IMG/VR virus record: IMGVR_UViG_3300001460_000016
Span: 1-64,000 of that record
Direction: 5' to 3' (one strand)
DNA from: a virus
Length of the DNA: 64,000 nt
A program made the position numbers and the translations under genes. Within the stretch, counting starts at the first letter, position 1, and every line of letters starts with the position of its first letter. Of the stretch, positions 1,445-38,680 are shown piece after piece. The notes under the pieces were generated by a model. That model worked only from the letters and a program-made list of their open reading frames with translations, did not search any database and was not told where the DNA came from.

Positions 1445-1445
<1 letters not shown>
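1..1445 (-). CDS. Tail-fibre-like or virion structural protein with collagen-like segments and internal repeats (3'-partial; absent from the ORF track)
   Basis: ATG at 1445 overlaps the upstream TAA (TAATG). The frame reads MASITGGVPLGGFISPTDSADTFP...GDLWFDSTAGVFSVYIDDGDSNQWVE...GITFPDGTHQ...YAVTVANAGGNKYFIDTVQQDTIYLLRGQKY and stays open to the window edge. These motifs are typical of T4-like fibre proteins. Confidence 0.8.
186..649. repeat. 101-bp direct repeat B (186-286 and 549-649)
   Basis: Manual alignment gives 4 mismatches in 101 nt. Encodes TYVHAGTGISLDAGGITFPDGTHQxSAASGS. Confidence 0.9.
435..910. repeat. 83-bp direct repeat A (435-517 and 828-910)
   Basis: Manual alignment gives 4 mismatches in 83 nt, 3 of them synonymous. 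Encodes GSTLGIDxTAIVHVAGISSDGGITAGG. Confidence 0.9.
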
Positions 1446-3402
<1,957 letters not shown>

Positions 3403-3406
<4 letters not shown>

Positions 3407-3852
3407 CTAGTTACCTCGGGTTCAACTTCAAATCTACCTTGAAGTATTCTGGTTACGGTACTGTCTGACAGGTTTGTCAATTCCAAATCATAAAAATGTC
3501 TACCAGATGGTATGTTTTGCATGGTAACATGATCAACTGATAAGAATATACCACCCGTTGTTCCTATTACACCAGCGGTACTAGAGTTCAATTCTATTCC
3601 ACCGATACCTGCAACACCACCAGTTCCCGTAAAATAACCAGTAGAACCACCACCGACAACACCCTTGTTACTGTCTCCGGTACTACCAGTTACAGAGAGA
3701 AGGATATTCTCGGTGGTGTAAGATTTTCTGACCTGCATAGAAGCAGAATATGTGTTTAAATCTACTACAACTTCAGATGAATTGTAGAATGTCACATGAA
3801 ACTTAAACGTACTTCCACGGTCTACTGTTATATTGTATTCGCCTGCGGGCAT
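3403..3852 (-). CDS. Small beta-sandwich virion protein, putative fibre adaptor; paralog of 38681..39184
   Basis: N-terminal [21 protein letters not shown] and C-terminal FYDLEL...[16 protein letters not shown] pattern, common in phage genes that precede fibre genes. AGGAG SD. Confidence 0.6.
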
Positions 3853-3867
3853 AGTTTTCTCCTAACG

Positions 3868-3875
3868 TATTTAGG
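3868..3875 (-). promoter_or_regulatory. T4-type late promoter CCTAAATA
   Basis: Intergenic, 15 nt upstream of the ATG at 3852, matches the xxTAAATA motif before other late genes. Confidence 0.65.
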
Positions 3876-3914: not shown

Positions 3915-5171
3915 TCACTTTTTCTTTTTCTTATAAGACTTCTTTTTGGTTTCTTTTTTCTGTGCAAACCCATATTTTTCTTGCATATCTTGTGCGTTCT
4001 TCTTAGATTCTGTAATTTGTTGATTTCTTTGTTTAATGGCGTTAATATACATATCTCTATTATTAGAAATTCGTTCCACTTGTTCCTTTGGAACTTTACC
4101 ACCAGATAAAAGTTTATTACAAGCGTCTAAACCCTCTTCTAACTGTCCTGCATAAAATGCAGTAGAACCAAGTTCATCAAGAACCATCCAATCATAGATG
4201 TCAGAAGCAAGGAATAGAATATCCTGTTCTGGAAAACCTATCTTTGCAGCTTGAGCTGCGTAGATATAGGCAAGTCGAGGGTGACCGTTGAGTCTAAATA
4301 CCCTCGAAATTTGATGAAGTGGTTCTGCACGCCAAGGTCTATTCTCCCATGCAGCAAGAAAAGCAGCTTGTGTATTTTCCCACGATTCTTCTAAAAGTCC
4401 AGAACATATTGCTACTCTATAAAGTGAATAGAATACCTCTTCGTCCCATCCGCCCATCTTTGCTCTCTTTTCATACCACTCTTTGGATAGAGCATATTCC
4501 TGAGAATCAAAATAACTCTGAGCAAGATAGAAATGGTAACGATCATTTGTAGGATCATATACATCAGAATCAGGATTCAACAAAGCATCTTTAAGAGTCT
4601 CTGCATCTCGTAGATATTTCTCCTTAGCACTTATGCCTACATTGCGGCCGCCTTCGGTTCGAGCATGTACAAAATACTCTCCCGGAATCTGAGCCATTTG
4701 TTTTTCTTCTCTACCTTCACAATGGGCATATTCGTGAAGAACACCAACATAAAACCATTTATCTTCAGTTCTGAAGATTTGATTTCTCCACCAAGTAAAC
4801 TCTGGTCCTCTACCAATTCGGAGAGAGTATGAACTAAATCGAGTTTTCTCAATAAAGGTCAAGAGTGACTTGATATCACCTTCTAATGAATCATCCGCGT
4901 CGATGACCCACGCATAATCGGCCTTACCGTCACAGTTACGAAGTGCCTGTGTTCTCGACTTACCAAATCCCTGCCAAGGAATCTCATGAACCTCGCCGGG
5001 AATTCCCTTCTCATCAAAGAACTCTTTGATTATTTCTTTAGTCTTATCACTCGAACCGGTATCAGAAATATCATATCGATCAATGTGAGGTGCCATCGAT
5101 TCTAGACATCTCTTGATGCAGTGTTCTTCATCTTTCACGATCATACAAAGTGTAATTGTTGGGCGCGGCAT
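3915..5171 (-). CDS. GT2 glycosyltransferase with C-terminal TPR repeats
   Basis: ITLCMIVKDEE..I.RCLES, DTGSSDKT, WVIDADD and YVGVLHE motifs; TPR-like helices (RYHFYLAQSY, RPWRAEPL); poly-Lys tail. Confidence 0.9.
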   Translation of the reverse strand: MPRPTITLCMIVKDEEHCIKRCLESMAPHIDRYDISDTGSSDKTKEIIKEFFDEKGIPGEVHEIPWQGFGKSRTQALRNCDGKADYAWVIDADDSLEGDIKSLLTFIEKTRFSSYSLRIGRGPEFTWWRNQIFRTEDKWFYVGVLHEYAHCEGREEKQMAQIPGEYFVHARTEGGRNVGISAKEKYLRDAETLKDALLNPDSDVYDPTNDRYHFYLAQSYFDSQEYALSKEWYEKRAKMGGWDEEVFYSLYRVAICSGLLEESWENTQAAFLAAWENRPWRAEPLHQISRVFRLNGHPRLAYIYAAQAAKIGFPEQDILFLASDIYDWMVLDELGSTAFYAGQLEEGLDACNKLLSGGKVPKEQVERISNNRDMYINAIKQRNQQITESKKNAQDMQEKYGFAQKKETKKKSYKKKKK

Positions 5172-6121
5172 AATATCTCCATAATTTTAATTGCTGACTT
5201 ACCATCACCAAAAGGGCAAGGCTTGTCTAGTATGTAGGTGTTTTTAATTGAGTTTACCATTGAGGGAAGGTCTTTTGGAGTTAAACAAAGAACACCATGA
5301 TGTTCTAACACCTCTGGTCGTTCCGTTGTCTCTCGACATATAATAATTTTCTTGTTGAAGAACGATCCTTCTTCCTGTAGTCCACCACTATCCGTAATCA
5401 GGAACTTACAGTTTGCAATCCGTTTCACCATCTCATCATGGGGTAATGGATCGATCACATTTACATTCTTCAGTTTATCTACGGCATTCATAACAACAGG
5501 ATTGGGATGTCGAATCACTGTGACGTTTTCGTCTAGACTGTCGAGTTCTCTCATCCAGTCGTCGATGATGTGGTGGTTCTCTCGACGATGAATGGTCACA
5601 AGAACCTCGTCACCATAAGATGATTCAACATCGACTAGGTTATCCAGAACGGTATTTCCCACGACATGAATCTCACCACCGACAGAATCACGAAGCAAAT
5701 GAGTCTTTGCAATCTTAGTAGGACAGAGATGAATGTCTGTGATGCGTGAAGTCATCTGACGATATCCCTCTTCTGGGTAAGGGTGATTGAGATTATAAGT
5801 TCGTAGTCCTGCTTCCAGATGAATAACGGGAACCTTGTGGTTGAAGGCAGTTAGAGCAACAGCAAAACTAGTTACAGTATCCCCCATCGACAAAACCGCA
5901 GTAACATCTTTGAAGTTAATATTATTCATGACAGAAGAGATGATTGAGTCGAGACGATTCACCCCCTCAGTGATCTTCAACTTATCATGAAACCAACCAC
6001 CAGAAATATCTGCGTGTTGTCCAGTAAACAACACTCGGTAGGGAACTTTACCCTCGAAGGCTTTGATCAGGGGTTTAATTTTTATCCACTCGGGACGAGT
6101 GCCATAACATAGTAAGATCAT
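5141..6121 (-). CDS. wecB: UDP-N-acetylglucosamine 2-epimerase (non-hydrolysing)
   Basis: GTRPEWIK, TGQH, GDT, HLEAGLRT..PYPEE, TIHRREN, TDSGGLQEE and RETTERPE motifs. Confidence 0.93.
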   Translation of the reverse strand: MILLCYGTRPEWIKIKPLIKAFEGKVPYRVLFTGQHADISGGWFHDKLKITEGVNRLDSIISSVMNNINFKDVTAVLSMGDTVTSFAVALTAFNHKVPVIHLEAGLRTYNLNHPYPEEGYRQMTSRITDIHLCPTKIAKTHLLRDSVGGEIHVVGNTVLDNLVDVESSYGDEVLVTIHRRENHHIIDDWMRELDSLDENVTVIRHPNPVVMNAVDKLKNVNVIDPLPHDEMVKRIANCKFLITDSGGLQEEGSFFNKKIIICRETTERPEVLEHHGVLCLTPKDLPSMVNSIKNTYILDKPCPFGDGKSAIKIMEILCRAQQLHFV

Positions 6122-7074
6122 TGATTTGTGAATAACCTATTATTGTATGAAATAATTTCGTAAGCTTCTATTAGTTCTTTTATACCCACATGTAAATCAA
6201 CAGATGGTTTCCATCCAAGAGATTCTATTTTATCATTACTTACGATATAATTTCTCTTATCTGGGTCGTTGTCAATCTCAGATTCTTGAATAGAAAAGTT
6301 TGGAATGTATTTTTTTATAGTCTCACATAATTCCATCTTTGAAAGATTGGCACTACTGAGTCCTACATTGAATGATTCGCCTTTCATTTTATCATAATGT
6401 TCAATAGCAAAAATCATTGCACCAACTACGTCTTTGACATGAATGAAGTTTCTCTTGAAGGAACTTTCGAAAAGAACAATGTATTTATCTGTACACGCTT
6501 TGTATGTAAAATCATTTACAAGTAAGTCGAGTCTCATTCGTTCGGAAATTCCAAACACCGTTGCAAGTCGAAGACAAACTGCACCTGATGTTTCCTTAAG
6601 ATAGTTTTCTGCATTTACTTTAGTTGTACCGTAAAGACTTAAAGGGGCGAGTGGAGTTTCTTCGTTACAGTGAACAAGTTCTCCATCTTTCATTTCCCCG
6701 ATCCCATAACCAGAATTGGTAGTTGGGAAAATAATTTTCTTATTATTACCAACAATATCCGCTATGTGTTTCACTGCGTCTTCATTAACTTGAACCGCGG
6801 CTCTCTCGTCCTTCTTACAAGCAGGCATTCCTACGATACAAGCAAGAGGAATAATAATGTCATGTTCTTTAATGAGAGGATCAATTAAATCATAATCTCT
6901 AACATCTCCTTTTACAAATTTAAACTTGGGATTGAAACAATGTGTAGTTAGTGTTGTTTGTCTATACATTAGATTATCAACTACTGTAACATCATATCCC
7001 ATATCCAATAATACTGGAACAAGAGTTGTCCCAATATATCCAGCACCACCCGTAATCAAAACACGATCATTCAT
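6118..7074 (-). CDS. NAD-dependent nucleotide-sugar epimerase/dehydratase (extended SDR)
   Basis: TGGAGYIG, YGTTK (YxxxK) and RLATVFG.S.RMRLDLLVN. Confidence 0.9.
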   Translation of the reverse strand: MNDRVLITGGAGYIGTTLVPVLLDMGYDVTVVDNLMYRQTTLTTHCFNPKFKFVKGDVRDYDLIDPLIKEHDIIIPLACIVGMPACKKDERAAVQVNEDAVKHIADIVGNNKKIIFPTTNSGYGIGEMKDGELVHCNEETPLAPLSLYGTTKVNAENYLKETSGAVCLRLATVFGISERMRLDLLVNDFTYKACTDKYIVLFESSFKRNFIHVKDVVGAMIFAIEHYDKMKGESFNVGLSSANLSKMELCETIKKYIPNFSIQESEIDNDPDKRNYIVSNDKIESLGWKPSVDLHVGIKELIEAYEIISYNNRLFTNQ

Positions 7075-7280
7075 TTATCACAAACCTTTCCATATGAAAT
7101 TTTATTCCATATTCTTTCGTAAAAAAAGTAAACAAAAAAACCACTAACATTCATAAACACTGCGTTCCATATATGTTTGTCGGTCATAGCCAAATACAAA
7201 ATTATAAAACTATTAAGTGTAGCAAACAATCTCCACAATATAGTTTTTAGAATTGTTCGTAACTTAGTCTCTTCGTACAT
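7071..7280 (-). CDS. Small membrane protein, DUF2061-like
   Basis: ETKLRTILKTILWR...YFFYERIWNKISYG pattern with two hydrophobic segments. ATG at 7280 is preferred over TTG at 7283. Confidence 0.7.
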   Translation of the reverse strand: MYEETKLRTILKTILWRLFATLNSFIILYLAMTDKHIWNAVFMNVSGFFVYFFYERIWNKISYGKVCDK

Positions 7281-7671
7281 CAAGTATTCCTGTTGTAGAG
7301 TAGTTTGCTATTCTATCAAAGAAAAGAATTTCTCCAGAGTACTCTTTCCCCACAATGGGGAGTTTCCTATAATCACCACCTATTACTCTATACACGGGAC
7401 ACATTTCTTTCAATAAAGAAATCAATTCTTCGTTACTACCAAATGAAACTACCCCATTTACATATTTGATCGAACGAACAAGTTCCATCCTATCATCTAA
7501 TGTATTTATTGGACGAGAATTACCTTTTAATTCTTTAATTCTCTCGTCTGTATCCAATCCCACTACGACTCTTCCGCCGAGACTACTTGCATATTTGAAC
7601 ATCTCAATATGACCGCGATGTAAAATATCAAAACATCCATTTACCCAAATTATAGAATAGTTTTCAACCAA
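7264..7671 (-). CDS. Cytidylyl/adenylyltransferase, HldE (RfaE) domain II-like
   Basis: NGCFDILHRGH (HIGH-type), GLDTD..IK.LKG.SRPIN, GGDY and YSTT. Confidence 0.88.
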   Translation of the reverse strand: MVENYSIIWVNGCFDILHRGHIEMFKYASSLGGRVVVGLDTDERIKELKGNSRPINTLDDRMELVRSIKYVNGVVSFGSNEELISLLKEMCPVYRVIGGDYRKLPIVGKEYSGEILFFDRIANYSTTGILDVRRD

Positions 7672-7744
7672 TTTGACTATCTCCCGATTCTACTCTATAA
7701 CTATCTTCATCAAAGTGGGTGGTAGAAACTTCATAAATGATCAC
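7664..7744 (-). pseudogene. 26-aa mini-ORF, probable C-terminal relic of a cupin sugar-isomerase-like gene
   Basis: GTG...TGA encodes MIIYEVSTTHFDEDSYRVESGDSQIG. This resembles the E.ST.HFDEDSYR..GD C-terminus of cupin proteins from phage sugar clusters. It overlaps both neighbours. Confidence 0.55.
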
Positions 7745-8492
7745 CTACCTTATTTACTCCTCTGTGTTGGACCACAATTGAAGCATATTCATTACCCCGT
7801 TGGATAGACTTACTTACATCTTTTGTTTTTAGATACTCTGAAATAAAACCCGTCAAAAAAGTATCACCTGCACCAGCTAGATCTTTTACTTCGACTGACT
7901 CTACCGGATATGATTTCCCATCATATAGGCAACCCTTTTCACTCAAAGTAACAATTAGTTTGGTATCAAAAGAAAAGTTACACTTGTCTAACATGTGTTT
8001 TGTTTTTTCATACTCATACTCATTTATTTTTATAAAGTTTACATCTCGACACCAATCACCTAGTTTCTTTTTAGTATCCATTATCACTAGTGGATGTTGA
8101 CATGATATCCATTTAATGTCACTTTCAGTTAAAAACCCATGATCATAATCTGAAATTATGATCGCATCGTATTTTTTAAAATCAATATTTTTTTGAATAT
8201 CTTTTATCCTTTCCACTCTTCTTCCATGAGAGTCTACTCGGATAATGCAGTGATTAGTTCTGTGTTCTACATATCTTGTTTTTGTTATCTCTTCTTCATT
8301 GGTCACAAGATCGCACTGATCTCCAATCGAAAGAAGATTGTCATACACATTCCTACACATTCCACCATTAGAAGTTTGATATAGAGACTCAAATACGGGA
8401 ACTGGTCCTTCGGGTGCAAGTCTTTCACACTTACCGTAGATGTAAATATCAACACAAGAATCACCAATAATTAATATTCTTGGGTTCACCAA
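7731..8492 (-). CDS. PfkB-family sugar kinase, HldE (RfaE) domain I-like
   Basis: IGDSCVD.Y.YG.CERLAPEGPVP, ISDY and DLAGAGDTF PfkB signature. The start may be GTG at 8489. Confidence 0.88.
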   Translation of the reverse strand: MVNPRILIIGDSCVDIYIYGKCERLAPEGPVPVFESLYQTSNGGMCRNVYDNLLSIGDQCDLVTNEEEITKTRYVEHRTNHCIIRVDSHGRRVERIKDIQKNIDFKKYDAIIISDYDHGFLTESDIKWISCQHPLVIMDTKKKLGDWCRDVNFIKINEYEYEKTKHMLDKCNFSFDTKLIVTLSEKGCLYDGKSYPVESVEVKDLAGAGDTFLTGFISEYLKTKDVSKSIQRGNEYASIVVQHRGVNKVGDHL

Positions 8493-8881
8493 CTAATCTC
8501 CCAATCTTTAAATTCACTAGCAAGACAGTCAATTTTATAATCTTGTCTTCCGCCTACCTTTTCCTGTATTTTATTTTTAGCCGTGTTACGAATTCCGTTT
8601 AATCCGTGAGTCAGACTCAAGTCTGCTCCTTCTTTTCCATTCCTGCAATCGGATTCATTGTGCCATATGTGAAGATTCATCTGAGACAAAACAACAATAT
8701 CTCGAATCATGTTCGCGTCGGGTTTATGTTCCTCTAACAATAAATCAATATCATGAAGAATAAGTTGAATTTCTTCAGAATAATTTTCTTTGTGTTCTGG
8801 AATAAACACTTCTTTCAATTGAGTAATACTCAACCGATCTATTAATTCTGATAGGGTGGGTAAATATTTTCTGTCTTTCAT
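8486..8881 (-). CDS. Hypothetical helical protein of the sugar cluster
   Basis: RKYLPTLSELIDRLSITQLKE...NLHIWHNES. ATG at 8881 overlaps the stop of the upstream mini-ORF (ATGA), so it is preferred over TTG at 8896. Confidence 0.7.
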   Translation of the reverse strand: MKDRKYLPTLSELIDRLSITQLKEVFIPEHKENYSEEIQLILHDIDLLLEEHKPDANMIRDIVVLSQMNLHIWHNESDCRNGKEGADLSLTHGLNGIRNTAKNKIQEKVGGRQDYKIDCLASEFKDWEISW

Positions 8882-9012
8882 TTCCAAAATCTCCAAAAGT
8901 AAATTTCACGTTTTTTCGCATACCAGTCTAATCTAGGAGTGATCTTATGTAAGAGATAATTATACACTCTTTGTGCAAATAAACCTAATAAAAAACCTGC
9001 GATTATTTCCAT
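8878..9012 (-). CDS. 44-aa putative membrane peptide (not in ORF track)
   Basis: MEIIAGFLLGLFAQRVYNYLLHKITPRLDWYAKKREIYFWRFWK. Fills the gap exactly and overlaps both neighbours. Confidence 0.6.
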   Translation of the reverse strand: MEIIAGFLLGLFAQRVYNYLLHKITPRLDWYAKKREIYFWRFWK

Positions 9013-9917
9013 TTTTCAATCTCTCTTATATAATAATCTACGCAACTCTGAATCCCATCCTTTAGATTTGTTTTAATAAACTGTACACCTTTTAGATAAG
9101 TCAGTACCTTTTTAGTATCAATTTTCTTTTCTTTGACACCAACATATTTATACAAATCGTGTTCAATTAAGTCGGAGTTATAATCAAAAGCGTCACATAC
9201 AAGAGTAGCAAATTCATTTATTGAATTATCTTCACCTGAACCCAAGTTAAATATCTGATTATCATAACCAAGAAGATTAATAATTGCATCAATAGCATCG
9301 TCAATATAAATTAGTTCTCTTCTCTGTTCTCCATTTCCCCATACTATAAACTTCTCATCTTTGTGTTTTGCATTATAACAATTTCGAACAAAATCAAAAA
9401 TGAAATGATTATCATCCAATTCAAAGTCTGGACCATACAGTGTAGAAGGAATAAAATATAACCACTTTAAATTGTGTTGTTTCTCTATTGACTGAAGACC
9501 ATTAAGCAACATACGTTTTGTCATGGCATATGTGTATAGACTTTCCTCTGGTTCTCCTAGAAGATAGTTGTCTTCTTTCATATGAATATCAGGTGAGTAT
9601 GAACAACTTGTTCCCATACAGATAATCTTTGATTGTGGTTGACATGTTTGCCAATATTTTAAAATATTGGTATTGATTGTTTGATTTTCCAACCATTGAG
9701 TGGCAGGATTTTTTAAACAATAATCTCCTGCTTTTGTCACAGCAGCCAAATGAAAAATATAATCAAATTTAATATCATTAAAACACCGCAAATTATCAAC
9801 ACTACTTAAATTAGCATGTTGTGTATTTGAAATTGATACATCCCATCCCAATTCTTTTAATTTTCGAACCAGATGAGTTCCTAGAAATCCTGTTGCACCT
9901 GTTACTAATACTTTCAA
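9003..9917 (-). CDS. GDP-L-fucose synthase-like epimerase/reductase (Fcl/WcaG-like SDR)
   Basis: TGATGFLG, GTSCSY, YAMTKR, LYGP and VWGNGEQRRELIYIDD. Confidence 0.82.
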   Translation of the reverse strand: MKVLVTGATGFLGTHLVRKLKELGWDVSISNTQHANLSSVDNLRCFNDIKFDYIFHLAAVTKAGDYCLKNPATQWLENQTINTNILKYWQTCQPQSKIICMGTSCSYSPDIHMKEDNYLLGEPEESLYTYAMTKRMLLNGLQSIEKQHNLKWLYFIPSTLYGPDFELDDNHFIFDFVRNCYNAKHKDEKFIVWGNGEQRRELIYIDDAIDAIINLLGYDNQIFNLGSGEDNSINEFATLVCDAFDYNSDLIEHDLYKYVGVKEKKIDTKKVLTYLKGVQFIKTNLKDGIQSCVDYYIREIEKWK

Positions 9918-11140
9918 TTGATTACCACCTCTCTTGACACTACTTCAATTTCTGGAAATGGAATGATAAAACTAACTCCCTCTTCTATAATGTCTTGATT
10001 TTTCTTTATAATTTCGTCTGCAAAATTATGAGAAAGTAAAAGATAATAATCGGGGAGGTCGGTCTTGTCTTCTTTGTAAATTGGAATATGAGATTTTGGG
10101 AGATAGTTTCCAATTTTCATTTCGTTAATTTCAACGGACTTGTCTACAAGTGTTTTATCAATGTCAAAGTAATTTAGTAGAGTGTTGCCTTTTGCTGGCG
10201 CACCATAGACGTAAATTGTCTTTCCTTGTTCTTTCAGATCTACTAGAAAATCTTTCAGTTTCTCTTTACTACTTTCTACTTCCTGTGCAAAAGAGACAAA
10301 TGTATCAGTCGTGTATTTCTCATCTTTTCGTGCAAGTTCAATAAACCTATCAGTCTTTTTGTTTAGTGAACTATCTGAGTGACAAATCTTTGCGATGATT
10401 GAACCGCTATGAATGCCTGAATAATATCCGTCAAAGATTTCGAGTCCATAAGGCTTTAGAAGATTTGATAAACTCTTGATGGTATAATAACAAAGATGTT
10501 CGTGATAAATGGTATCGAAGTTCTTACCTTCAATCATTGCTCCTGCGTACATAAACTGAACAATCAATACACCGTCATCTCTTAGACTTTTCTTGATACC
10601 TCGAATTACACTGTGTAGTTCTTCTAGATGAAAGAAGACACCCGATGCGTTATAGAGTTTGACAGTCTTTTCGCCTAACTGACTATCTACAGTATCTTCA
10701 TCGAAGAATTCTGTAAGAGTGGGGACACCATTTTTTCTTGCAATGTTCGACACTCTAATCGCAGATTCTATGTTAAGAACATTATCACAACCGAGTTTCT
10801 GGTATTGTTTCAACTGCGAGCCATCATTTCCACCAATATCAACAATCAAATCGTCTTGTTGAATATCAAACTGTTCTGTGTTTTCTTTTGCTACTTCGTA
10901 AAAGTGATTGATAAGAGTATCAGTCATACCAGACAAGTATTGGTGGTCCTGAAACATAGTTTCCTTGGGAACGGTGTGGTCTAACTGAAGCAGTTCGCAA
11001 TCTAAACAAGTGCAAAGACGAAGGGGGTAAAACTTTTCCTTTCCCAAGTTTTCTTTGCTCAAGAAATCATTGCACCACGGCTGTTCGCCTAGGTCTAGAA
11101 TCAACTTTAAATTTGTACTGTTACATCCTCTACACTTCAC
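9914..11140 (-). CDS. NDP-hexose C-methyltransferase (class I SAM, N-terminal Zn site)
   Basis: CRGC...LDLG.QP...CLDCELLQL, DIGGNDGS, FDTIYHEHLCY, YGAPAKGNTLLN and FIIPFP. Confidence 0.9.
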   Translation of the reverse strand: MKCRGCNSTNLKLILDLGEQPWCNDFLSKENLGKEKFYPLRLCTCLDCELLQLDHTVPKETMFQDHQYLSGMTDTLINHFYEVAKENTEQFDIQQDDLIVDIGGNDGSQLKQYQKLGCDNVLNIESAIRVSNIARKNGVPTLTEFFDEDTVDSQLGEKTVKLYNASGVFFHLEELHSVIRGIKKSLRDDGVLIVQFMYAGAMIEGKNFDTIYHEHLCYYTIKSLSNLLKPYGLEIFDGYYSGIHSGSIIAKICHSDSSLNKKTDRFIELARKDEKYTTDTFVSFAQEVESSKEKLKDFLVDLKEQGKTIYVYGAPAKGNTLLNYFDIDKTLVDKSVEINEMKIGNYLPKSHIPIYKEDKTDLPDYYLLLSHNFADEIIKKNQDIIEEGVSFIIPFPEIEVVSREVVIN

Positions 11141-11892
11141 AAATATTCTCCTCTTTGAGTAACATCAATATCATATTTTTCAAACAAAGGCTTGAGTTCA
11201 TTTGGATATTCTTTTGTATTCCAAAGACCCTTCACCAGTGCAGTTGCGATGTGGGGGAATACCGAGGAATCATAGTGATACATTCCTCTTTTTGCTTCTT
11301 CTCTGAACACATATAATCCTTCAAGACCCAACTTCAAACAAACATCATTAGCATTCCATTCGAATGAGTTTTGCCAATCTGTATTTGCTATGTGTAAATT
11401 AGGGCCTTCTTGGTGGATTAATTCCAAGTCTCTTGTTTTCCAAAGACTGGCACTCTGACTGTAATAATAAGGAAGTCTTTTATCTGTAACAAACAAATCA
11501 TCACGGTCTTTGTAAGGCACAAGTGGAGTTTCAACAACTGAACCTTTAAAAAGTTTTATAAAGGAAATCCCATCCCTCTCCATAATGTCTTTGTAATTTT
11601 CAATTAATTCCTCTTTAACATTATCATATAGAAGATAGTCTTCGGAAATGTAAATGCAGTAATCTTCCTTTACCTCTTTTATTCCTGTTAAAAATTGTTC
11701 TCTGTACAGTTTATCTTTATCGTATTTAACGACATTGAAATCAGATGGAACCGAGTTGTTGGTTTCATCCGTAAACAGATACTTTTTTTCAAACAGTTGT
11801 GGAGATGTAAACTTTTTCAGTTTCCCAAAAAACATATCCCACACATCAGAGTTTTTGAAAACAGTATTTACAACTAGTGCTAAATTATCCAT
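11137..11892 (-). CDS. Putative GT-A-fold glycosyltransferase
   Basis: D.WD.FF, YISEDY (DxD-like), QSASLWK and ALVKGLW; cluster context. Confidence 0.55.
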   Translation of the reverse strand: MDNLALVVNTVFKNSDVWDMFFGKLKKFTSPQLFEKKYLFTDETNNSVPSDFNVVKYDKDKLYREQFLTGIKEVKEDYCIYISEDYLLYDNVKEELIENYKDIMERDGISFIKLFKGSVVETPLVPYKDRDDLFVTDKRLPYYYSQSASLWKTRDLELIHQEGPNLHIANTDWQNSFEWNANDVCLKLGLEGLYVFREEAKRGMYHYDSSVFPHIATALVKGLWNTKEYPNELKPLFEKYDIDVTQRGEYL

Positions 11893-13111
11893 TCGTCACT
11901 TCCTCTATTAATGATTGCCATTTTTGCAAGACCTTTTCTTTGTCGTTAAACTCTTTTACATACTTATCGGCATTAATGCCCATATCAACTTTAGACTCAT
12001 AAACTTTAATCAAAGCCTCACCAAGTCCCACTGAATCATATGTGTCTACGAGATATCCGCTCTCCCCGTCCTTAATGACATCAGCAGAAACACACCTGTC
12101 AAATGAAACCAAAGGAGTTTTGTTGGATAGACACTCTACGCTCATCATAGGGCCTGCGTCTTCGATTGTGGTCTGAAGTCCGACATTAACAGAACGATAA
12201 ACATAGGACAAGTGTTCTCTTGTGGGAACATACCCTATCGGCATCCACCGAAACGGTTGAGTTTGCGAGAATGGAACTGAGGGGGCAGGGCCTGCACTCA
12301 AGACAACAACATCATCGGTGTCGTATCCTTTTTCTTTCATTTGTTTATATAAATGATTGAATGCTTCGTCTGCATACTTTCTTCCCTTTCTCGGGCCATC
12401 TGGATTTGTGGTTCCCCATAGAATTACAAACTTATCCTTTACCTCTTCTGGATAACCCAATGCAATCCGTGCCTCTTCTCTGCTTCCTTCGAAGACAGGA
12501 ATATCAAATGGAATTGGTATACATTCACATCTTTTGTCTTTGAATAATGAACTTTCCTTGAACAGTTTTAGACTGTAGTTGCTAACAGGCGCGCCTATAA
12601 TTGGAATATCATTCCAGGCTTCTTTTTTTCTTTGTAGGAACTGAAAGGATTTATCCTTATCGTCGGACGAAGGTGTGAAATCTTCACTCATATTTTTGTT
12701 TGAAATCATATGACCATTCGGAGCCAACTGCGGACAAGCACCACAGGAAGACTTAAATTTATCACAACCAAAGACATAACAACACCCACCAGTAAAGTGG
12801 TCATTCACCATACCAACAAAAACAATAGGACATTTATGTTTATCATAAATCGCCTTGACTGTTTCTGGATACAACAGACTATCATACAATATCACCACAT
12901 CAGCAGAATCAAAAGAATCCTCTACTCCAACCTGACTTCCCTCTACGGATATTGGATAGTATGAAGTATCTGGATTTTCTCTCCCCCGCCCAAGTCCAAG
13001 TATATGATGGGAATCATATGGAAGGTCACGCATCGCATTGAAAATAATCCAATTCCCAGAATCGTGAGAATTGTACATATCAACACCTGCAATGTGAACT
13101 ATTTTCTTCAT
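11885..13111 (-). CDS. GT4 (GT-B) glycosyltransferase, WcaC-like
   Basis: FTGGCCY..GCDKF...CGACPQL, RKG and EDAGPMMSVECLSNKTPLV...GESGYLV. Confidence 0.85.
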   Translation of the reverse strand: MKKIVHIAGVDMYNSHDSGNWIIFNAMRDLPYDSHHILGLGRGRENPDTSYYPISVEGSQVGVEDSFDSADVVILYDSLLYPETVKAIYDKHKCPIVFVGMVNDHFTGGCCYVFGCDKFKSSCGACPQLAPNGHMISNKNMSEDFTPSSDDKDKSFQFLQRKKEAWNDIPIIGAPVSNYSLKLFKESSLFKDKRCECIPIPFDIPVFEGSREEARIALGYPEEVKDKFVILWGTTNPDGPRKGRKYADEAFNHLYKQMKEKGYDTDDVVVLSAGPAPSVPFSQTQPFRWMPIGYVPTREHLSYVYRSVNVGLQTTIEDAGPMMSVECLSNKTPLVSFDRCVSADVIKDGESGYLVDTYDSVGLGEALIKVYESKVDMGINADKYVKEFNDKEKVLQKWQSLIEEVTNG

Positions 13112-13821
13112 TTATTTATATTATCCTTAAAAAAATTATAATCGACAGGATTCAAAAAAGATTTCCAGTTTTTCTTTAAATCTGCGAAGGTCAAATTATC
13201 AATATCTAATCCCGACTCTGGTGCTTCGTTTTGTTCAAATTCATCTCTCTTCTTGTCTAGAATCACACTACAACAAGAAGTTACCACCGAGAACGATGTT
13301 AGTTCTGGGTAATTGCTTCGTGTATAAGTTAATGCTTTCCACGCATCTCCATTCTGTCCCACAATAGGCGTGTGGTTGGTCTGTTCCCTGAAGGAATAAT
13401 TATTCTTGTTGATGCTACTATAGAAATTTTCAAAATCGGCGGGAAGAACACACTGAACAATTTCATTTCTCGGTGCAGTATCGTGCAACACAATACTACC
13501 TCCTGGCTTTAGTATTTTTAATGACTCCTTTATTTCCGCAACAACAATGTCTGAAATATGGCAACCATCAATAAAAATAACATCATACTTGTTTTTATAT
13601 TCTCTTTTGTTTAGTGCAAAAAACACCATCGAAGGCATCCTGTGCGTAATACTAGGACACCCTCCATATGGGTCAACTCCGTGTTTTTTGTTTTTGGCAT
13701 TTACCTTTTGAAAGGTTGAACCTTCATCAACACCAATTTCTAAATAATCAATCGGATTCAATTTAGAAATAATATCAATTGGGTCTTCTGAATATAGATT
13801 TGTTAGTTTACCATCATACAT
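13108..13821 (-). CDS. Class I SAM-dependent methyltransferase (Methyltransf_24-like)
   Basis: YLEIGV, GVDP, YDVIFIDGCH and LKPGGSIVLHD. Confidence 0.85.
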   Translation of the reverse strand: MYDGKLTNLYSEDPIDIISKLNPIDYLEIGVDEGSTFQKVNAKNKKHGVDPYGGCPSITHRMPSMVFFALNKREYKNKYDVIFIDGCHISDIVVAEIKESLKILKPGGSIVLHDTAPRNEIVQCVLPADFENFYSSINKNNYSFREQTNHTPIVGQNGDAWKALTYTRSNYPELTSFSVVTSCCSVILDKKRDEFEQNEAPESGLDIDNLTFADLKKNWKSFLNPVDYNFFKDNINK

Positions 13822-14419
13822 TTTTATTAAATACCGTAAACTCTCTCAAGTCTCGGTAACCTCCTTCTTCAATAAGATCTGGTACGTTCTCTGGGTAGTT
13901 CTGCATCAGTGCAAGACCATGTGACGCCTGTTGTGGAGTCATATACATGTTCCATCCGAGCATCGTAATATCATCTTCCTTGTATGGTACTGCGTGTCGT
14001 CCTTCGTATCGTGCAACACGAAGCCAGTCAACAATATCTTTGTTGTCTGTCAGTACCATACCACCCTTACCAATCGGAAGATGTTTTTTGATATGAAAAG
14101 ACAGACACATGTTTGTGCCTTCGATATACATGTTAGAAGTAAGTCGTTTGGCGGAATCATAAATTGGATATGGTTTGAGTTGGTATATACCTTCCCATTC
14201 ATCGTTAGTAAACTTCACTGTACCACCCGAATGAATGATGGACTGGGGTACTGAGAGATAAGTCTTTGCAGGTATCTCAACCTCCCCAACACCAAAATAC
14301 TTACAACAAAGAAACAGAGCATCGGTGCAGGACGTAACCGCAACGGCATACGGCGCACCTGTATAATCAGCGACTGTCTCTTCAAACATATCTACAATTT
14401 TAAAAGGGTTATGTTTCAC
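13814..14419 (-). CDS. Short DegT/DnrJ/EryC1/StrS-family PLP aminotransferase-like protein
   Basis: FEE.VA.YTGAPYAVAVTSCTDAL, YDSA and SFHIKKHLPIGKGGM (PLP-Lys region). Only 201 aa. Confidence 0.8.
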   Translation of the reverse strand: MKHNPFKIVDMFEETVADYTGAPYAVAVTSCTDALFLCCKYFGVGEVEIPAKTYLSVPQSIIHSGGTVKFTNDEWEGIYQLKPYPIYDSAKRLTSNMYIEGTNMCLSFHIKKHLPIGKGGMVLTDNKDIVDWLRVARYEGRHAVPYKEDDITMLGWNMYMTPQQASHGLALMQNYPENVPDLIEEGGYRDLREFTVFNKNV

Positions 14420-15249
14420 AGAAATTTCTTTCTCAATAAAGTAAAATCAACATCATCACTAACAACATCAAGGAGTCCAGACCCACACACAACCGTTGGG
14501 ATTCCTTTTTCAATTTTCCAGAACTTACCAGCGTTTTTGTGTGGGTCTAATATATTTAGGGGAGCAGATACACTCGATTCTTTTATGTGAATCAATTTAC
14601 CATCATACCATGTTGTTGCACCATCATAAGGATATCCATTAGCACATATTTTTCTATGAATATTTTCTGCTGAGTCTGTCCAGTCTATTCTCAAATCTTC
14701 TTCATTTTTCCAAACAGAAAAAGAACTCTTACTAAAATCTACATCAATTGGTTGCTCTCCATTGACTAAGATTTCCTCAATCAAAGACACATACATCTCG
14801 GCAATAAAATCAAATGCTTTTTTTATCTTTATGGGGTGAGTGATAGCCTTTTTACATCTACCAAAAACAGTTCCATAGTCGGGTCCGTGACCTTCGATGG
14901 GTCTAAATGCACTAACACCTATGTAATCTGCACCGTCTATTAATGCAGATACGGTTGGACAAAACCCTCTTCTCTCTGGAAGATATGAGTCATGTAAAAC
15001 AATATATTTTTCTAAGTCTCCCCTGATAAGATACTGCCAACCCACCATGAATACTTTGTCTACGGTTTTTTCTACATCATCTTTCCTATTGTAGAACTTT
15101 ATACCATCTGAATTACAGAACTTTTGAATTTCTTCGTATATATTTTTTTCTTTATTATCATACGAAACAACAAACTCAGGAGTAACACTTAGACTCTCCA
15201 GAAGTTTTAGTCCTTTATATCCAACCAACATCAATCCAAATTTCACCAT
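14416..15249 (-). CDS. Formyltransferase (Fmt-like, probable sugar N-formyltransferase)
   Basis: GWQYLI, LHDSYLPERRGFCP, DYG, IDW...IHRKICA.GYPYDGA and VVCGSGLL. Confidence 0.8.
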   Translation of the reverse strand: MVKFGLMLVGYKGLKLLESLSVTPEFVVSYDNKEKNIYEEIQKFCNSDGIKFYNRKDDVEKTVDKVFMVGWQYLIRGDLEKYIVLHDSYLPERRGFCPTVSALIDGADYIGVSAFRPIEGHGPDYGTVFGRCKKAITHPIKIKKAFDFIAEMYVSLIEEILVNGEQPIDVDFSKSSFSVWKNEEDLRIDWTDSAENIHRKICANGYPYDGATTWYDGKLIHIKESSVSAPLNILDPHKNAGKFWKIEKGIPTVVCGSGLLDVVSDDVDFTLLRKKFL

Positions 15250-16019
15250 GACTCATTTCTCACAAGATAACTGGACATGTCCCACATGCCCCTTTGTTTA
15301 ACTCCAGCCCAAGCAGACAAATATCCCCTGTCAATTCCCAATTCAAGATCGGGATTTAGAGCAGAACCCAAGTCAAGATATGTGTTGTTTGGTGCAATTG
15401 CATGCAGTTTATGAATGCAAATATTTCCAAGACTACTTGCACAAAACAAAAACAATTTACCTTCTGGTTTAGTCTCTCGGGTATATTCAACTATCTCTTC
15501 TATCTTATCATCATTGTTTATGATACAGTTTGATCCGACTCTAAAATCTTTTATGACATTCTTGAATTTATCTAACTTCGAATTTTCGTTACACATAATA
15601 ACAATTTCATACTCATCAAATGTGGGTAAAACCTTTTCACGAAAATCATAATAGTTAGAGTTAATAAACAAATTGGCAAAAGTTATATTCTCAATATCAG
15701 AACCACTGTTATCAATCATCCAATCCCTTGGACTGTATCCGACTATTCCCGCATCAGAATTTGTGGTTATACCTATGTGATAAGCTTCGGACTTGTACCG
15801 AAAGGCATCCCACAACTTATCATGATGAAACTTATGAGTTTCCGAATTAAATTCTTTTTGATCTTCTGGGTTTAGATACCCATGAGAAGTAGGACTTAGA
15901 GAATAAGATTTATTCTCAAGAATCCAAAGTTCACCATCTGCCCATCTACTAAATGCGAAAGGTTCATGTAGTTGTAACTTTGCTAGATACTTATAAAATT
16001 CTTGTTTAAAATCTTTCAT
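15243..16019 (-). CDS. Putative GT-D-fold (DUF1792-like) glycosyltransferase
   Basis: FAFSRWADGE near the N-terminus and YLDLGSAL near the C-terminus match the R.gDGE...DiGs pattern. Confidence 0.6.
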   Translation of the reverse strand: MKDFKQEFYKYLAKLQLHEPFAFSRWADGELWILENKSYSLSPTSHGYLNPEDQKEFNSETHKFHHDKLWDAFRYKSEAYHIGITTNSDAGIVGYSPRDWMIDNSGSDIENITFANLFINSNYYDFREKVLPTFDEYEIVIMCNENSKLDKFKNVIKDFRVGSNCIINNDDKIEEIVEYTRETKPEGKLFLFCASSLGNICIHKLHAIAPNNTYLDLGSALNPDLELGIDRGYLSAWAGVKQRGMWDMSSYLVRNESW

Positions 16020-16774
16020 TCTGCTTCCAACATTTTGAAACCATCATCAACAGCCCTAGCAAGACAAATGCCCATCAACTGACCAGCTCTATATGGTTTA
16101 CCATTTGGCCCTTGGAAGGTAGTCATTGAGATCCCTTCTTCACTGTGACCATATTCAGAACCTTTCGTACTACCCCACATAGAAAGATCATCCTTTGGGT
16201 GAGGAGGAACATAGGTTGCAAAGTCCGTATACTTCTGAATCATATGAGAGAAATGAATGTCTTCACCTACAATTGGCGGAATATCAACATGAGGCAGTTC
16301 TCTCCACAGAACACTTAGAAGTTCTCTTGGGAAGAACCAAGAGTGACCAACAATATCTACCTTTGCAGTTTCTTCGTTTGGATCACACCATCCAACCCTT
16401 CTGAGTTTTTGCCATGAGTAGTGTTTGTCACCAAACAAAACACCGACAGTTCCGAGAAGACCGGGAGTCTTTTCCATAGTGTCCAGACAATTTTGTATCC
16501 AGTTTTCACCGGGAATAGTATCGTCATCTAGGACGCAAATATAATCAGCCTTTGAGTTAAGAGCGTAAGCAAATCTAGACCAGACTCCAAGATTGTAATT
16601 ACAATCTGCAAAGATCAGTTGTTTCTTTATTTCATCTGGAACTTCTTGTTCACTATTGTTTCGCCAAGCATAGATCCCAGACACATCAACACTCTGGTTG
16701 TTTACGGCTTCTATCTGTTCTGGTAGCCAACGTGTTCTTCTATAACAATTTAAAAATACATCAATCGTCACCAT
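16016..16774 (-). CDS. GT2-like glycosyltransferase
   Basis: ICVLDDDTIPG, VDIVGHSWFF and GEDIHFS. Confidence 0.8.
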   Translation of the reverse strand: MVTIDVFLNCYRRTRWLPEQIEAVNNQSVDVSGIYAWRNNSEQEVPDEIKKQLIFADCNYNLGVWSRFAYALNSKADYICVLDDDTIPGENWIQNCLDTMEKTPGLLGTVGVLFGDKHYSWQKLRRVGWCDPNEETAKVDIVGHSWFFPRELLSVLWRELPHVDIPPIVGEDIHFSHMIQKYTDFATYVPPHPKDDLSMWGSTKGSEYGHSEEGISMTTFQGPNGKPYRAGQLMGICLARAVDDGFKMLEAE

Positions 16775-17411
16775 ATGTCATTCCCATCTTACCTTGCATA
16801 GTCTCGGTACTACCCCAATACTGTTCGGAATAGATCTTATCATTACCCTTATATTCTACACCAGTATAATGTTTTGGCAAGAAGTAATGTGAGGGATAAA
16901 TTTTTATCTTATCATAACCAGTTTTCTTAGTCATTTCTGTAAGAAATACAGGTCCAACAGTTTTCCATGCGGTAAGATTTGGTAACTTGGAAAGTTCTTC
17001 CGGATTCATCTCACGGATTCTCCAAACCATGTCATCCAACAACTTGTTGTTCTTCGAACATGCAAGGTATCCATTGCACATCAACCCCTCGCGGACTTCT
17101 TCGTTTTCCCAACAACAGAATGCTTCATTCTCTACGAAGAAATCATCGAGTGGATTTACACAGATAGAATCAGCATCAATGAAAAACCCACCGTAGTTAT
17201 AAAGCAGTTCATACCGAAGTATGTCTGCCTTACCGGCGAGTTCATTCATAGCATCAAACTGTGCTTGGTTTCTTAGTTTCGGCATGTTCTCTTCAGACCA
17301 AAACCGATAGTCCCAAGTTGGGTTCTTTTCTTTCCAAGTCTCCATCATTTCGACGGGACGTTTAGACTGATCACCCACCCATATCTGGTGGATAATTTTT
17401 GGAATACTCAT
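16761..17411 (-). CDS. DXD sugar-binding glycosyltransferase (OCH1/GT32-like)
   Basis: IPKIIHQIWVG, W.EKNP.W.Y.FW, ADILRYELLY.YGG.FIDAD and TVGP.FLT. Confidence 0.9.
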   Translation of the reverse strand: MSIPKIIHQIWVGDQSKRPVEMMETWKEKNPTWDYRFWSEENMPKLRNQAQFDAMNELAGKADILRYELLYNYGGFFIDADSICVNPLDDFFVENEAFCCWENEEVREGLMCNGYLACSKNNKLLDDMVWRIREMNPEELSKLPNLTAWKTVGPVFLTEMTKKTGYDKIKIYPSHYFLPKHYTGVEYKGNDKIYSEQYWGSTETMQGKMGMTYGDD

Positions 17412-17435
17412 AATATAAATCTTTCACTAGTTGTA

Positions 17436-17843
17436 TTATTTACGTTTACCGATATGGTATTTAGGTATTAATTCCCACTCACTTTTCTCACGATGAGGAA
17501 TTATCTTAATATGATTGATTGGAACTTTGTCTTCAGCTTTGGAAGGATCTACTATTTTTAATAGATCCCATTCTGCAAGAAGACTTGCAATCATATTTCT
17601 TCTTGAAACATCACTTTCGGAAAGATTACTTGGTAGACCGTCTAGAGCAAACAACTCTTTAAAGTGTACGATATAATACTTTCCCTTCTTGTGTAAAATA
17701 TGACAAGACTGCCATAGTTTATTTTCTGTCCTAGAAGATACGCCTATTCTTGTTAAGGTTTCTCTCACTTTGAGAAAGTCATCCTTTTCACTGAGCGTAA
17801 CTTCTAACAAATCTTCTACGCCTATATCAATATATTCTTCCAT
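17436..17843 (-). CDS. regA: RegA translational repressor
   Basis: DDFLKVRETLTRIGV, LWQSCHILHKKGKYYIVHFKELFALDG and WELIPKYHIG; follows gp62. Confidence 0.97.
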   Translation of the reverse strand: MEEYIDIGVEDLLEVTLSEKDDFLKVRETLTRIGVSSRTENKLWQSCHILHKKGKYYIVHFKELFALDGLPSNLSESDVSRRNMIASLLAEWDLLKIVDPSKAEDKVPINHIKIIPHREKSEWELIPKYHIGKRK

Positions 17844-17846
17844 GTC

Positions 17847-17886
17847 ATAACACCTTTTTTATTAAACAAAAGACGTTATATTTAGG
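17847..17886 (-). promoter_or_regulatory. Late promoter CCTAAATA (17879-17886) abutting a 12-bp hairpin that covers the regA SD
   Basis: RNA AUAACGUCUUUU (17879-17868) pairs with AAAAGGUGUUAU (17858-17847), including 2 G-U pairs. Confidence 0.6.
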
Positions 17887-17899
17887 ATTTTACTCGTTT

Positions 17900-18277
17900 T
17901 CAACCCCCGTATTGATACAAGGAACGGATGTCTTCAATCTGATTTGGGGTAAGAACCCTAAGCACCTCGGTGGCTCTCTGATTAGAGTAGTTATAATGGT
18001 CCTTAATCAACTGCAAATCGTCTTCTTCTTGTGACTTAATCCACTTACTGAATCGTTTTCTTGGACGAAGAGACAGTCGGAGATAGTCGAACTGCATCTT
18101 CTTGTCTAATTGATTGTATCGGTTCACCTGATTCGCATATAAAATTGTATCGGGAAAGTAAGAAAGTGATCTGTTGATCACGAATGGGACATACGATTTT
18201 TCCTGAAGATCATCTTCTAGAAGAGGCGTTTTGTCGTGGTTGATTGCATTTAGGACTTCGGATAGGTTCATTTTCAT
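17900..18277 (-). CDS. 62: Clamp loader small subunit gp62
   Basis: LNAIN..K, Y.PFVINRSLSYFPDTILYAN, RPRKRFSKW and Y.YS...A. Confidence 0.93.
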   Translation of the reverse strand: MKMNLSEVLNAINHDKTPLLEDDLQEKSYVPFVINRSLSYFPDTILYANQVNRYNQLDKKMQFDYLRLSLRPRKRFSKWIKSQEEDDLQLIKDHYNYSNQRATEVLRVLTPNQIEDIRSLYQYGG

Positions 18278-19383: not shown

Positions 19384-19384
19384 T

Positions 19385-37754: not shown

Positions 37755-37759
37755 AATTA

Positions 37760-38677: not shown

Positions 38678-38680
38678 AAA

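Follow-up and report, generated by a model that had tools for sequence, protein, structure and literature searches.

The window analysed here comprises the first 64 kb of an IMG/VR record, linear and 77 kb long (IMGVR_UViG_3300001460_000016; estimated completeness 43%) from an uncultured, marine T4-like myovirus. All genes of the window lie on the minus strand, including a structural set (gp23 major head, tail sheath, large terminase, portal and baseplate wedge) and replication-type genes (UvsW, gp46/47, RNase H, gp45, gp44, gp62 and regA). Between regA and a tail-fibre module lies a sugar operon, in which 17 minus-strand open reading frames (ORFs), each of at least 70 aa, span 17411 to 3915 (13.5 kb). 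It ends in a family 2 glycosyltransferase (GT) with C-terminal tetratricopeptide repeats (TPR), here called GT2-TPR (3915-5171), and it is the relationship between this enzyme, the operon and the neighbouring collagen-like fibre genes that is considered below.

The operon is compact. Neighbouring ORFs overlap by 4-31 nt at every junction but two, where gaps of 106 nt (8897-9002) and 59 nt (7672-7730) are each spanned by a mini-ORF, which bears out the gap-free operon described in the original prediction, an earlier reading made from the letters alone. The mini-ORFs are mechanical ORF calls and candidate genes at most, and some overlaps may be overestimates because several starts are the maximal TTG/GTG start. 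Family searches with Pfam and NCBIfam confirmed the list of nucleotide-sugar enzymes (WecB, two short-chain dehydrogenases/reductases (SDRs), methyltransferases, a formyltransferase and a split HldE); the expected aminotransferase does match the DegT-like family, but at 201 aa it is about half the usual length of ~370 aa. About six GTs had been claimed and five are supported (GT32-type, GT2, GT-D, GT4 and GT2-TPR), while the sixth, a putative GT-A at 11137-11892, has a weak language-model lead and gave no Pfam, NCBIfam, PHROG or PDB match in single-sequence searches. The same searches returned no match for the 136-aa protein at 8486-8896. Among related loci, which are given L numbers throughout, a 65%-identical copy of the GT32-type gene lies directly after regA in L007/L043. 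The features of the locus are collected in Table 1.

Table 1. Features of the sugar operon, its flanks and the paired fibre genes. Positions refer to the window unless a related locus is named.
Feature	Position	Strand	Evidence or remark
Late-type motif C(C)TAAATA, CCTAAATA	17879..17885	-	36-41 nt before regA; closest recognisable promoter ahead of operon
regA translational repressor, conserved upstream anchor of variable cassette	17436..17843	-	Pfam Translat_reg E 1.5e-41; synteny gp45-gp44-gp62-regA in relatives
GT32-type glycosyltransferase (Gly_transf_sug), DXD sugar-binding region	16761..17411	-	PF04488 E 6.8e-11, above cut-off
GT2 glycosyltransferase without TPR	16016..16774	-	PF00535 E 6.9e-6, 26.5 bits vs cut-off 23.3
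Probable GT-D-fold glycosyltransferase (DUF1792-like)	15243..16019	-	AlphaFold2 (AF2) model and PDB fold matches
Formyltransferase, likely sugar N-formyltransferase	14416..15249	-	Formyl_trans_C E 6e-10; NCBIfam formyltransferase/Fmt/ArnA N-terminal; PDB Fmt E 3e-5
DegT/DnrJ/EryC1-like, 201 aa, possible sugar aminotransferase	13814..14419	-	PF01041 E 6e-23, two stretches
Class I S-adenosylmethionine methyltransferase (Methyltransf_24)	13108..13821	-	PF13578 E 7e-8
GT4 (GT-B) glycosyltransferase	11885..13111	-	PF00534 E 1e-8; PF13692; weak NCBIfam match SdgA
251-aa protein, possible GT-A	11137..11892	-	Only a weak ESM Atlas GT2 lead, score 0.92
NDP-hexose 3-C-methyltransferase	9914..11140	-	Pfam Methyltransf_13/14; full-length PDB matches MtmC (E 1e-64), KijD1, TcaB9
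Extended SDR, GDP-L-fucose-synthase-like (3,5-epimerase/4-reductase type)	9003..9917	-	PF01370 E 2.5e-42; NCBIfam Fcl E 7e-39, below its cut-off
Mini-ORF, 44 aa, hydrophobic N-terminus, bridges 106-nt gap	8878..9012	-	Mechanical call; maximum KD19 1.39
136-aa protein	8486..8896	-	75%-identical copy in L003
PfkB kinase, HldE/RfaE domain I-like (heptose-7-phosphate kinase)	7731..8492	-	PF00294 E 2e-18; TIGR02198 E 5e-32, below cut-off
Mini-ORF, 26 aa, bridges 59-nt gap	7664..7744	-	Mechanical call
Nucleotidyltransferase, HldE/RfaE domain II-like (heptose-1-phosphate adenylyltransferase)	7264..7671	-	PF01467 E 7e-16; TIGR02199 E 4.5e-30, below cut-off
DUF2061 small membrane protein, 70 aa	7071..7283	-	PF09834 E 6e-7; one transmembrane-like window
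Extended SDR, NDP-sugar epimerase or dehydratase	6118..7074	-	PF01370 E 3.7e-32; sub-threshold RmlB, GalE, HldD model matches
Non-hydrolysing UDP-GlcNAc 2-epimerase, WecB-like	5141..6121	-	PF02350 E 8e-58; TIGR00236 199 bits vs cut-off 210
GT2-TPR glycosyltransferase, proposed protein O-glycosyltransferase starting the fibre glycan	3915..5171	-	PF00535 E 5e-15; profile, fold, synteny
Second late-type motif CCTAAATA	3868..3874	-	15-21 nt upstream of adaptor, between operon and fibre module; missed by the original prediction
BppU_N-like adaptor, 149 aa, Gly/Ser/Thr-rich inserted loop, possible second acceptor	3403..3852	-	PHROG, ESM Atlas, alignment
Collagen-like tail-fibre protein, 653 aa, proposed main acceptor	1445..3406	-	Pfam Collagen E 6.5e-16; PHROG tail-fibre families
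Second fibre protein, cut by contig end, short G-X-T tracts	3..1445	-	ORF call and triplet count
Low-Thr collagen ORFs, (G-E-Q/G-V-Q)n or mixed charged repeats	L014:2797-3864, L033:11905-12975, L028:11233-12642		After GT2-TPR/adaptor pair

The DxD motif of GT2-TPR (D91-A92-D93) is invariant in 32 homologues, and the AF2 model of the enzyme (pLDDT 91.6) has a GT-A core at residues 5-170 and is all-helical from 182 to 400. The C-terminal repeats score below the cut-off of the TPR_2 model, and the family profile matches consensus TPR proteins with E 6e-21. Compared with PDB, the profile of the 32 homologues matches the GT domain of GmaR (5e-21), SunS (1e-13) and ThuS (1e-12), while generic GT2s such as chondroitin synthase and TarS reach only ~1e-5. 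With Foldseek the model aligns to ThuS/SunS with a TM-score of 0.6 over ~400 columns of its 418 residues, and to the teichoic-acid-type GTs RmlT, TarS and TarP with only ~0.35. GmaR is the Listeria flagellin O-GlcNAc transferase. The nearest solved relatives, i.e., GmaR, SunS and ThuS, are thus protein/peptide GTs, and the claim of a protein-recognising TPR-GT2 stands as a predicted function. Taken together, architecture, motif, profile and gene neighbourhood support the prediction that GT2-TPR belongs among the protein/peptide glycosyltransferases of the SgtA/GmaR/SunS-ThuS type. The family is large, with >5,000 clusters at 90% identity in metagenomes, and in enzymes of the GmaR/SunS/ThuS type the helical-repeat domain recognises the substrate (PMC9638930).

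In terms of function, Clostridioides difficile SgtA offers a closer precedent. Like GT2-TPR it is a soluble enzyme of ~360-420 aa with a GT-A/GT2 domain and C-terminal TPRs, encoded upstream of a Thr-rich collagen-like gene (PMC7157674); more precisely, SgtA has a GT-A domain and four TPRs, its gene lies directly upstream of bclA3, and it puts beta-O-GlcNAc on Thr of the BclA3 collagen repeats as the initiating O-linked sugar of a glycan that further enzymes cap (PMC7157674). The phage system differs in being viral, in that the presumed acceptor is a tail fibre and not a spore coat protein, in having an adaptor gene between GT and collagen gene, and in that GT2-TPR is the last gene of a swappable 13.5-kb operon that also encodes four to five other GTs and rare-sugar enzymes. 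GmaR and SunS/ThuS, the best profile and fold matches, likewise act in the cytoplasm on protein or peptide acceptors (PMC9638930); however, GmaR has an extra anti-repressor domain and acts on flagellin, SunS/ThuS form S-linkages to Cys of small bacteriocins, and their identity to GT2-TPR is only 15-30%.

Both fibre genes downstream of the operon carry G-X-T collagen tracts, as had been claimed, and the larger intact one (1445-3406) has two G-X-Y tracts with 41 triplets and 59% Thr at Y. The 149-aa adaptor that separates GT2-TPR from the collagen gene in this window matches phrog_1084 and phrog_3304 ('L-shaped tail fiber protein assembly') and has an ESM Atlas BppU lead (score 0.95); tblastn of this protein against GenBank phages gave no match. 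Across ~90 related T4-like contigs GT2-TPR is a fixed anchor beside a BppU_N-like adaptor and a collagen-like fibre gene, in many cases with translational coupling, and in ~34 of T4-like origin with 48-94% identity the order is gp45-gp44-gp62-regA, a variable cassette, GT2-TPR, then an adaptor homologue and/or a collagen ORF. The spacing between GT and adaptor is only 2-7 nt in 8 loci, and in six the GT2-TPR stop overlaps the start of a (G-A/S/T-T)n collagen ORF. A collagen-like ORF starts 0-1.4 kb downstream of GT2-TPR, on the same strand, in 24 of the 29 close relatives with enough downstream sequence, whereas up to 10 kb upstream none of the 29 loci has one. When the search was anchored on the adaptor instead, the GT lay upstream in 55 of 64 loci, and a 136-kb relative encodes no more than two collagen ORFs, of which one immediately follows the adaptor. 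The adjacency to fibre genes first noticed in the window is therefore an evolutionarily locked association of the TPR-GT2 with the fibre module. Two loci carry tandem GT2-TPR paralogues (L024:9026-11349 and L025:10001-12303; 52% and ~43% identity to that of the window), and those of L024 are followed by a collagen ORF of 81 triplets with 98% Thr at Y, (G-E-T-G-K/R-T)n.

The same pairing is found well outside these phages. Full-length GT2-TPR homologues (31-42% identity) occur in Streptomyces, mycobacteria, Polyangiaceae, Bacillus, Acinetobacter, Flagellimonas and others, and of 80 bacterial homologue loci 33 have a Thr-rich collagen-like ORF no more than 6 kb away, which in 23 of the 80 is the immediate neighbour (within 500 bp). 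A giant-virus contig from a metagenome-assembled genome (L045, 10001-15651) encodes a 37%-identical homologue that is followed, 2 kb downstream, by two collagen-like ORFs (41 and 54 triplets, 51-67% Thr at Y), and collagen ORFs also adjoin several distant phage homologues. The recurrence of the pairing in unrelated genomes is the strongest reason to expect that collagen-like proteins are what the enzyme acts on.

A second enzyme of the operon also points towards protein glycans. The product of 15243-16019 has no Pfam, NCBIfam, PHROG or PDB match of its own, nor did the profile of its homologues match PDB sequences; the earlier GT-D-like label thus finds no direct Pfam match, but it is supported by the fold. 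The AF2 model (pLDDT 93.9) has PDB fold matches with E<=0.002 only to 4phr, 4pfx and 5v4a, which are DUF1792/GT-D structures, with TM-scores of 0.51-0.53 over ~245 residues. Ten of 30 homologues match the GT-D Pfam model PF22882 (best 2.8e-4) and three match PF08759 (best 4.2e-5), and D28-G29-E30 is invariant in all 30; the DUF1792 structure paper reportedly describes a DxE metal-binding motif near the N-terminus. On the strength of the model, the assignment as a GT-D-fold glycosyltransferase is supported. The solved DUF1792/GT-D enzymes extend O-glycans on streptococcal serine-rich repeat adhesins.

Among the sugar-donor genes, the C-methyltransferase matches MtmC, KijD1 and TcaB9 over its full length, which makes a branched deoxysugar a fair expectation. 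The short DegT-like protein at 13814-14419 could be read as a pseudogene; we rejected this, as proteins of ~200 aa make up a populated family (175 clusters at E<=1e-30, most of them 200-220 aa long), some members of which are fused at the C-terminus of 460-660-aa proteins. The window protein keeps an S-F-H-x-x-K-like motif. The ADP-heptose pathway is incomplete, with only its two HldE-like halves recognisable, both below equivalog cut-offs, and a weak HldD match of the SDR at 6118-7074; GmhA and GmhB were not found among the operon ORFs with Pfam/NCBIfam. As the four activities of the pathway are not all accounted for, the identity of the sugar made by the HldE-like halves is uncertain.

The content of the operon varies strongly among relatives, the stretch between regA and GT2-TPR measuring 1.5 kb at its shortest and 13.5 kb at its longest. 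The 91 cassette ORFs of 13 relatives encode GT10, GT2, GT11, GT25, GT6, SDRs, FkbM/TylF methyltransferases, DegT aminotransferases and formyltransferases, and the top families are all sugar-related. The minimal cassette (L037) has two GTs followed by the GT2-TPR-collagen pair. A DNA metagenome contig of 7,999 nt matches the window up to 6121 and from 15999 on, but between these points it has 7,009 different bases where the window has 9.9 kb. The breakpoints correspond to the start of WecB and the junction of GT2 and GT-D; the centre of the operon has thus been replaced and the flanks kept, a cassette swap at gene boundaries in a close strain. L003 is likewise mosaic. Since the regA-to-GT2-TPR block is a swappable cassette, related phages would be expected to show different fibre glycans. 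In L037 (7586-13885) and L005 (14267-16445) further sugar genes lie downstream of the fibre module, after dUTPase, so that the fibres have sugar genes on either side; among the products of these further genes are GT11, an Fcl-like SDR, a full-length DegT, a HAD phosphatase, a PfkB kinase and a nucleotidyltransferase fusion.

Every enzyme of the operon is without transmembrane-like segments and predicted to be soluble, the DUF2061 protein being the only membrane-type product. The reported absence of export and priming machinery was upheld, with no Pfam/NCBIfam match among the 17 ORFs to a priming transferase, flippase, ABC exporter, polymerase or ligase, no multi-transmembrane protein in the operon, and no export family among the 25 commonest of the 91 relative-cassette ORFs. 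Phage seroconversion modules (GtrABC, Oac) gave no matches either, and the operon encodes no integral membrane enzyme. For modification of phage DNA, a thymidylate-synthase-type hydroxymethylase (Thymidylat_synt) was not found in the 77-kb fragment nor in five relatives that are 46-75% complete, a Tet/JBP domain was not found in a search that had no positive control, and no GT of the operon matches the T4 alpha-/beta-gt families in Pfam. This agrees with the earlier view that phage DNA is not the target, within records that are incomplete (43-75%).

A late-type motif before regA had been reported, and the same type of motif precedes sheath, scaffold and other structural genes; TATAAATA or CTAAATA lies 20-45 nt upstream of nine window genes, most of them structural. 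These motifs agree with NATAAATA, the late promoter described for T4-like marine phages (PMC2984593). A late-type motif is found upstream of regA in 15 of 16 relatives and directly before GT2-TPR in ~12, and the one in the gap between GT and adaptor recurs in L003 and L009-L012, making the motif at 3868-3874 a candidate late promoter of the fibre module itself. Neither operon gap holds a late-type motif, and sigma70 and terminator scans gave no convincing site inside the block. Two marine metatranscriptome runs contain contigs that match parts of the operon, of the fibre genes and of the replication genes with 90-99% identity. The contigs are assembled, derive from relatives, may include DNA and give no strand, ends or timing, and we did not use them as evidence for late expression. 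Elsewhere in the window a near-perfect TTGACA-17-TATAAT precedes 28484-29056 and is a candidate early promoter.

The phage itself stands apart from cultured relatives. Its portal is ~52% identical to cyanomyovirus portals, and with megablast against 50,697 GenBank phage records the operon and its flank matched only over a 143-bp regA stretch, i.e., no close cultured relative was found. Near-identical DNA is present in marine metagenomes of 12 studies. Since psbA and CsgG were not found in five relatives, each 70-78% complete, the clade is probably neither cyanophage nor curli-bearing pelagimyophage. Upstream of regA, a 383-aa protein (phrog_19197) and a GroES-like 97-aa ORF are inserted between gp44 and gp62 (18274-19425), an insert that relatives lack or carry in variable form. 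The portal and prohead genes are separated by three ORFs (36387-39184), of which a 455-aa ORF has no PHROG match and no tblastn match in GenBank phages. Among the baseplate/fibre genes, an 847-aa ORF (47989-50532) without PHROG match, which carries a short collagen-like tract of 9 triplets, is adjoined by a 2,535-aa ORF (50753-58360).

Because the operon ends in an enzyme of the collagen-glycosylating type beside Thr-rich collagen fibres, the phage probably sugar-coats its own particle and not the surface of its host. We propose that the operon is a phage-encoded, SgtA-BclA3-like system that glycosylates the tail-fibre module, with the island supplying extending GTs and rare donors, and put the probability of this at about 0.55. 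In such a system soluble GT2-TPR would grip the fibre-module proteins in the cytoplasm through its TPR domain, most likely at the G-X-T tracts of 1445-3406 and 3-1445 and possibly at the Ser/Thr-rich loop of the adaptor, and would move a first sugar to Thr/Ser, which by analogy with SgtA and GmaR would most likely be a HexNAc from a UDP-sugar. The other soluble GTs (GT-D, GT32-type, GT2, GT4 and perhaps 11137-11892) would extend it. As for donors, WecB could make UDP-ManNAc, the split HldE a nucleotide-activated heptose-type sugar and the Fcl-like SDR a 6-deoxyhexose; the C-methyltransferase, the DegT-like protein, the formyltransferase and Methyltransf_24 could yield a deoxysugar with 3-C-methyl, amino, N-formyl and possibly O-methyl groups. 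Acceptor, donor sugars, order of transfer, timing and the service of all 17 genes to one glycan are what we infer; that the other 16 genes feed the same glycan as GT2-TPR is suggested by the contiguity of the operon and the all-sugar content of the relatives' cassettes. The virion-glycosylation interpretation given in the original prediction is therefore supported in part: enzyme type, fibre synteny, the GT-D fold and the absence of export or DNA-modification partners speak for it, while timing, the link of all genes to one glycan and the acceptor have not gained the same support.

Several observations weigh against glycosylation of the fibre. The likeness to SgtA is one of described architecture and gene order, and the synteny within the clade is partly shared ancestry and not independent evidence. 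In tblastn searches against GenBank phages, GT2-TPR matched Tunturi_5, uncultured jumbo phages and Listeria fragments, and no T4-like isolate carried the gene, with none in cultured cyanophages or HTVC008M. Three relatives pair GT2-TPR with a collagen that has almost no Thr, (GEQ)n or mixed, which makes the Thr of G-X-T a likely but not certain acceptor; together with five close relatives that have no collagen ORF within 10 kb of GT2-TPR, they imply that the acceptor may include the adaptor Ser/Thr loop or other sites. The missing flippase does not decide the target, since soluble GTs could act at the inner leaflet on a lipid A-core that the host then exports. As for timing, two strong sigma70-like sites a short way upstream (18362-18335 and 19563-19536, minus strand; 11/12 with extended -10 TG) are candidate early promoters and point to gp62-regA, although individual sites are leads only because sigma70 and terminator counts do not exceed shuffled expectation, and in T4-like phages without MotA the middle genes carry both early and late promoters (PMC2984593). 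The predicted late timing thus keeps its conserved motif before regA but is tempered by these sites and by such dual promoters; late co-expression with the fibres is plausible for GT2-TPR, going by its motifs, and unproven for the operon as a whole.

To these points must be added those that favour another destination. The sugars may instead go to the lipopolysaccharide (LPS) or lipooligosaccharide (LOS) core, the capsule or another envelope glycan of the infected cell, where they would prevent superinfection, keep progeny from adsorbing to cells already lysed or ward off grazers, and the fibre adjacency would reflect a hyperplastic region only. Host surface, as O-chain or LPS, is the published reading of the islands of pelagimyophages and cyanomyophages (PMC7029224, PMC12801897, PMC7824862, PMC2984593). 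The HldE-/WecB-like enzymes here and the GT25/GT10/GT11 of relatives are classic LPS/LOS families, the operon includes the DUF2061 membrane protein, and the cassette is hypervariable like O-antigen loci. We nevertheless regard remodelling of the host surface as the less likely reading, though a live rival, because priming transferase, flippase, polymerase, ligase and Gtr-type enzymes are all missing from a set of soluble enzymes, and because the anchor enzyme is closest to protein/peptide GTs and not to LPS GTs, is translationally coupled to the fibre genes and belongs to a family that is paired with collagen genes across bacteria. The GT-D fold, too, is associated in the literature with protein O-glycan extension.

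A divided role is rather improbable. In this reading GT2-TPR, perhaps with one or two neighbouring GTs, would act on the fibre, and most of the cassette would have a different target, for instance the host envelope, the capsid, further virion proteins or host proteins (e.g., pilins or flagellins). With only two other GTs in L037 the large sugar-nucleotide set is dispensable for the core pair, extra sugar genes lie downstream of the fibres in L037 and L005, and mosaic replacement of the operon middle leaves the flanks intact; against this stand the overlapping genes of one operon with no internal promoter or terminator motif, and a cassette that is uniformly sugar-related and always directly abuts GT2-TPR. 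Lastly, the GTs might protect the phage DNA from restriction by decorating its hydroxymethylated bases, as happens in T4. DNA glucosylation is known classically from T4-like phages, and recent work, as cited in PMC12619734, describes diverse glycans on phage DNA. Given that neither a hydroxymethylase nor Tet/JBP was found in these fragment records (the latter in the uncontrolled search), that T4 gt families are absent and that the anchor GT carries a protein-binding TPR domain, we consider DNA hypermodification highly implausible.

Glycosylation of the fibre would have parallels among other viruses. In mycobacteriophages (Freeman et al. 2023, as cited in PMC12619734), virion proteins are likewise O-glycosylated by phage GTs that are encoded beside structural genes; there, reportedly, one or two GTs of other families modify capsid and tail-tube subunits at their C-termini, without a rare-sugar pathway and in actinobacterial hosts. 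The fibril clusters of giant viruses (Mimivirus/Megavirinae; PMC10117803, PMC9614988) similarly combine rare bacterial-type sugars with GTs that decorate surface fibrils, and vary between clades, but they have eukaryotic hosts and other acceptors, and Mimivirus collagen is modified by the hydroxylase/GT fusion L230 and not by a GT2-TPR. The 'LPS gene' islands of marine T4-like phages (P-SSM2, S-SCSM2R and the pelagimyophage host-recognition cluster) resemble the present operon in having rfaE-like genes, epimerases and GT2/10/11/25 in hyperplastic regions near tail-fibre genes (PMC7029224, PMC12801897, PMC2984593). They differ in being read as host-surface or DNA modification, and the cultured cyanophages and HTVC008M have no GT2-TPR homologue. 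In our literature search we met with no paper that connects the sugar islands of marine T4-like phages with glycosylation of their fibres.

Sugar or 'LPS' islands of marine myoviruses have been read since 2005 as host-surface tools, without a test. If the proposal made here is true, many 'LPS auxiliary metabolic genes' of ocean phages would be virion-glycosylation genes in need of re-annotation. A more far-reaching and distinctly tentative idea is that marine T4-like phages have their own glycan 'serotypes', in which a horizontally swapped island and an SgtA-like GT2-TPR would put rare sugars (branched C-methyl, N-formyl amino, heptose) on Thr-rich collagen fibres, stabilising a hydroxyproline-free triple helix and setting adsorption specificity. 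Variable glycan coats on phage particles would bear on adsorption, stability, marine-gel aggregation and grazing, and the idea of a stabilisation of prokaryotic and viral collagen triple helices by Thr-glycosylation would gain a widespread and simple test system.

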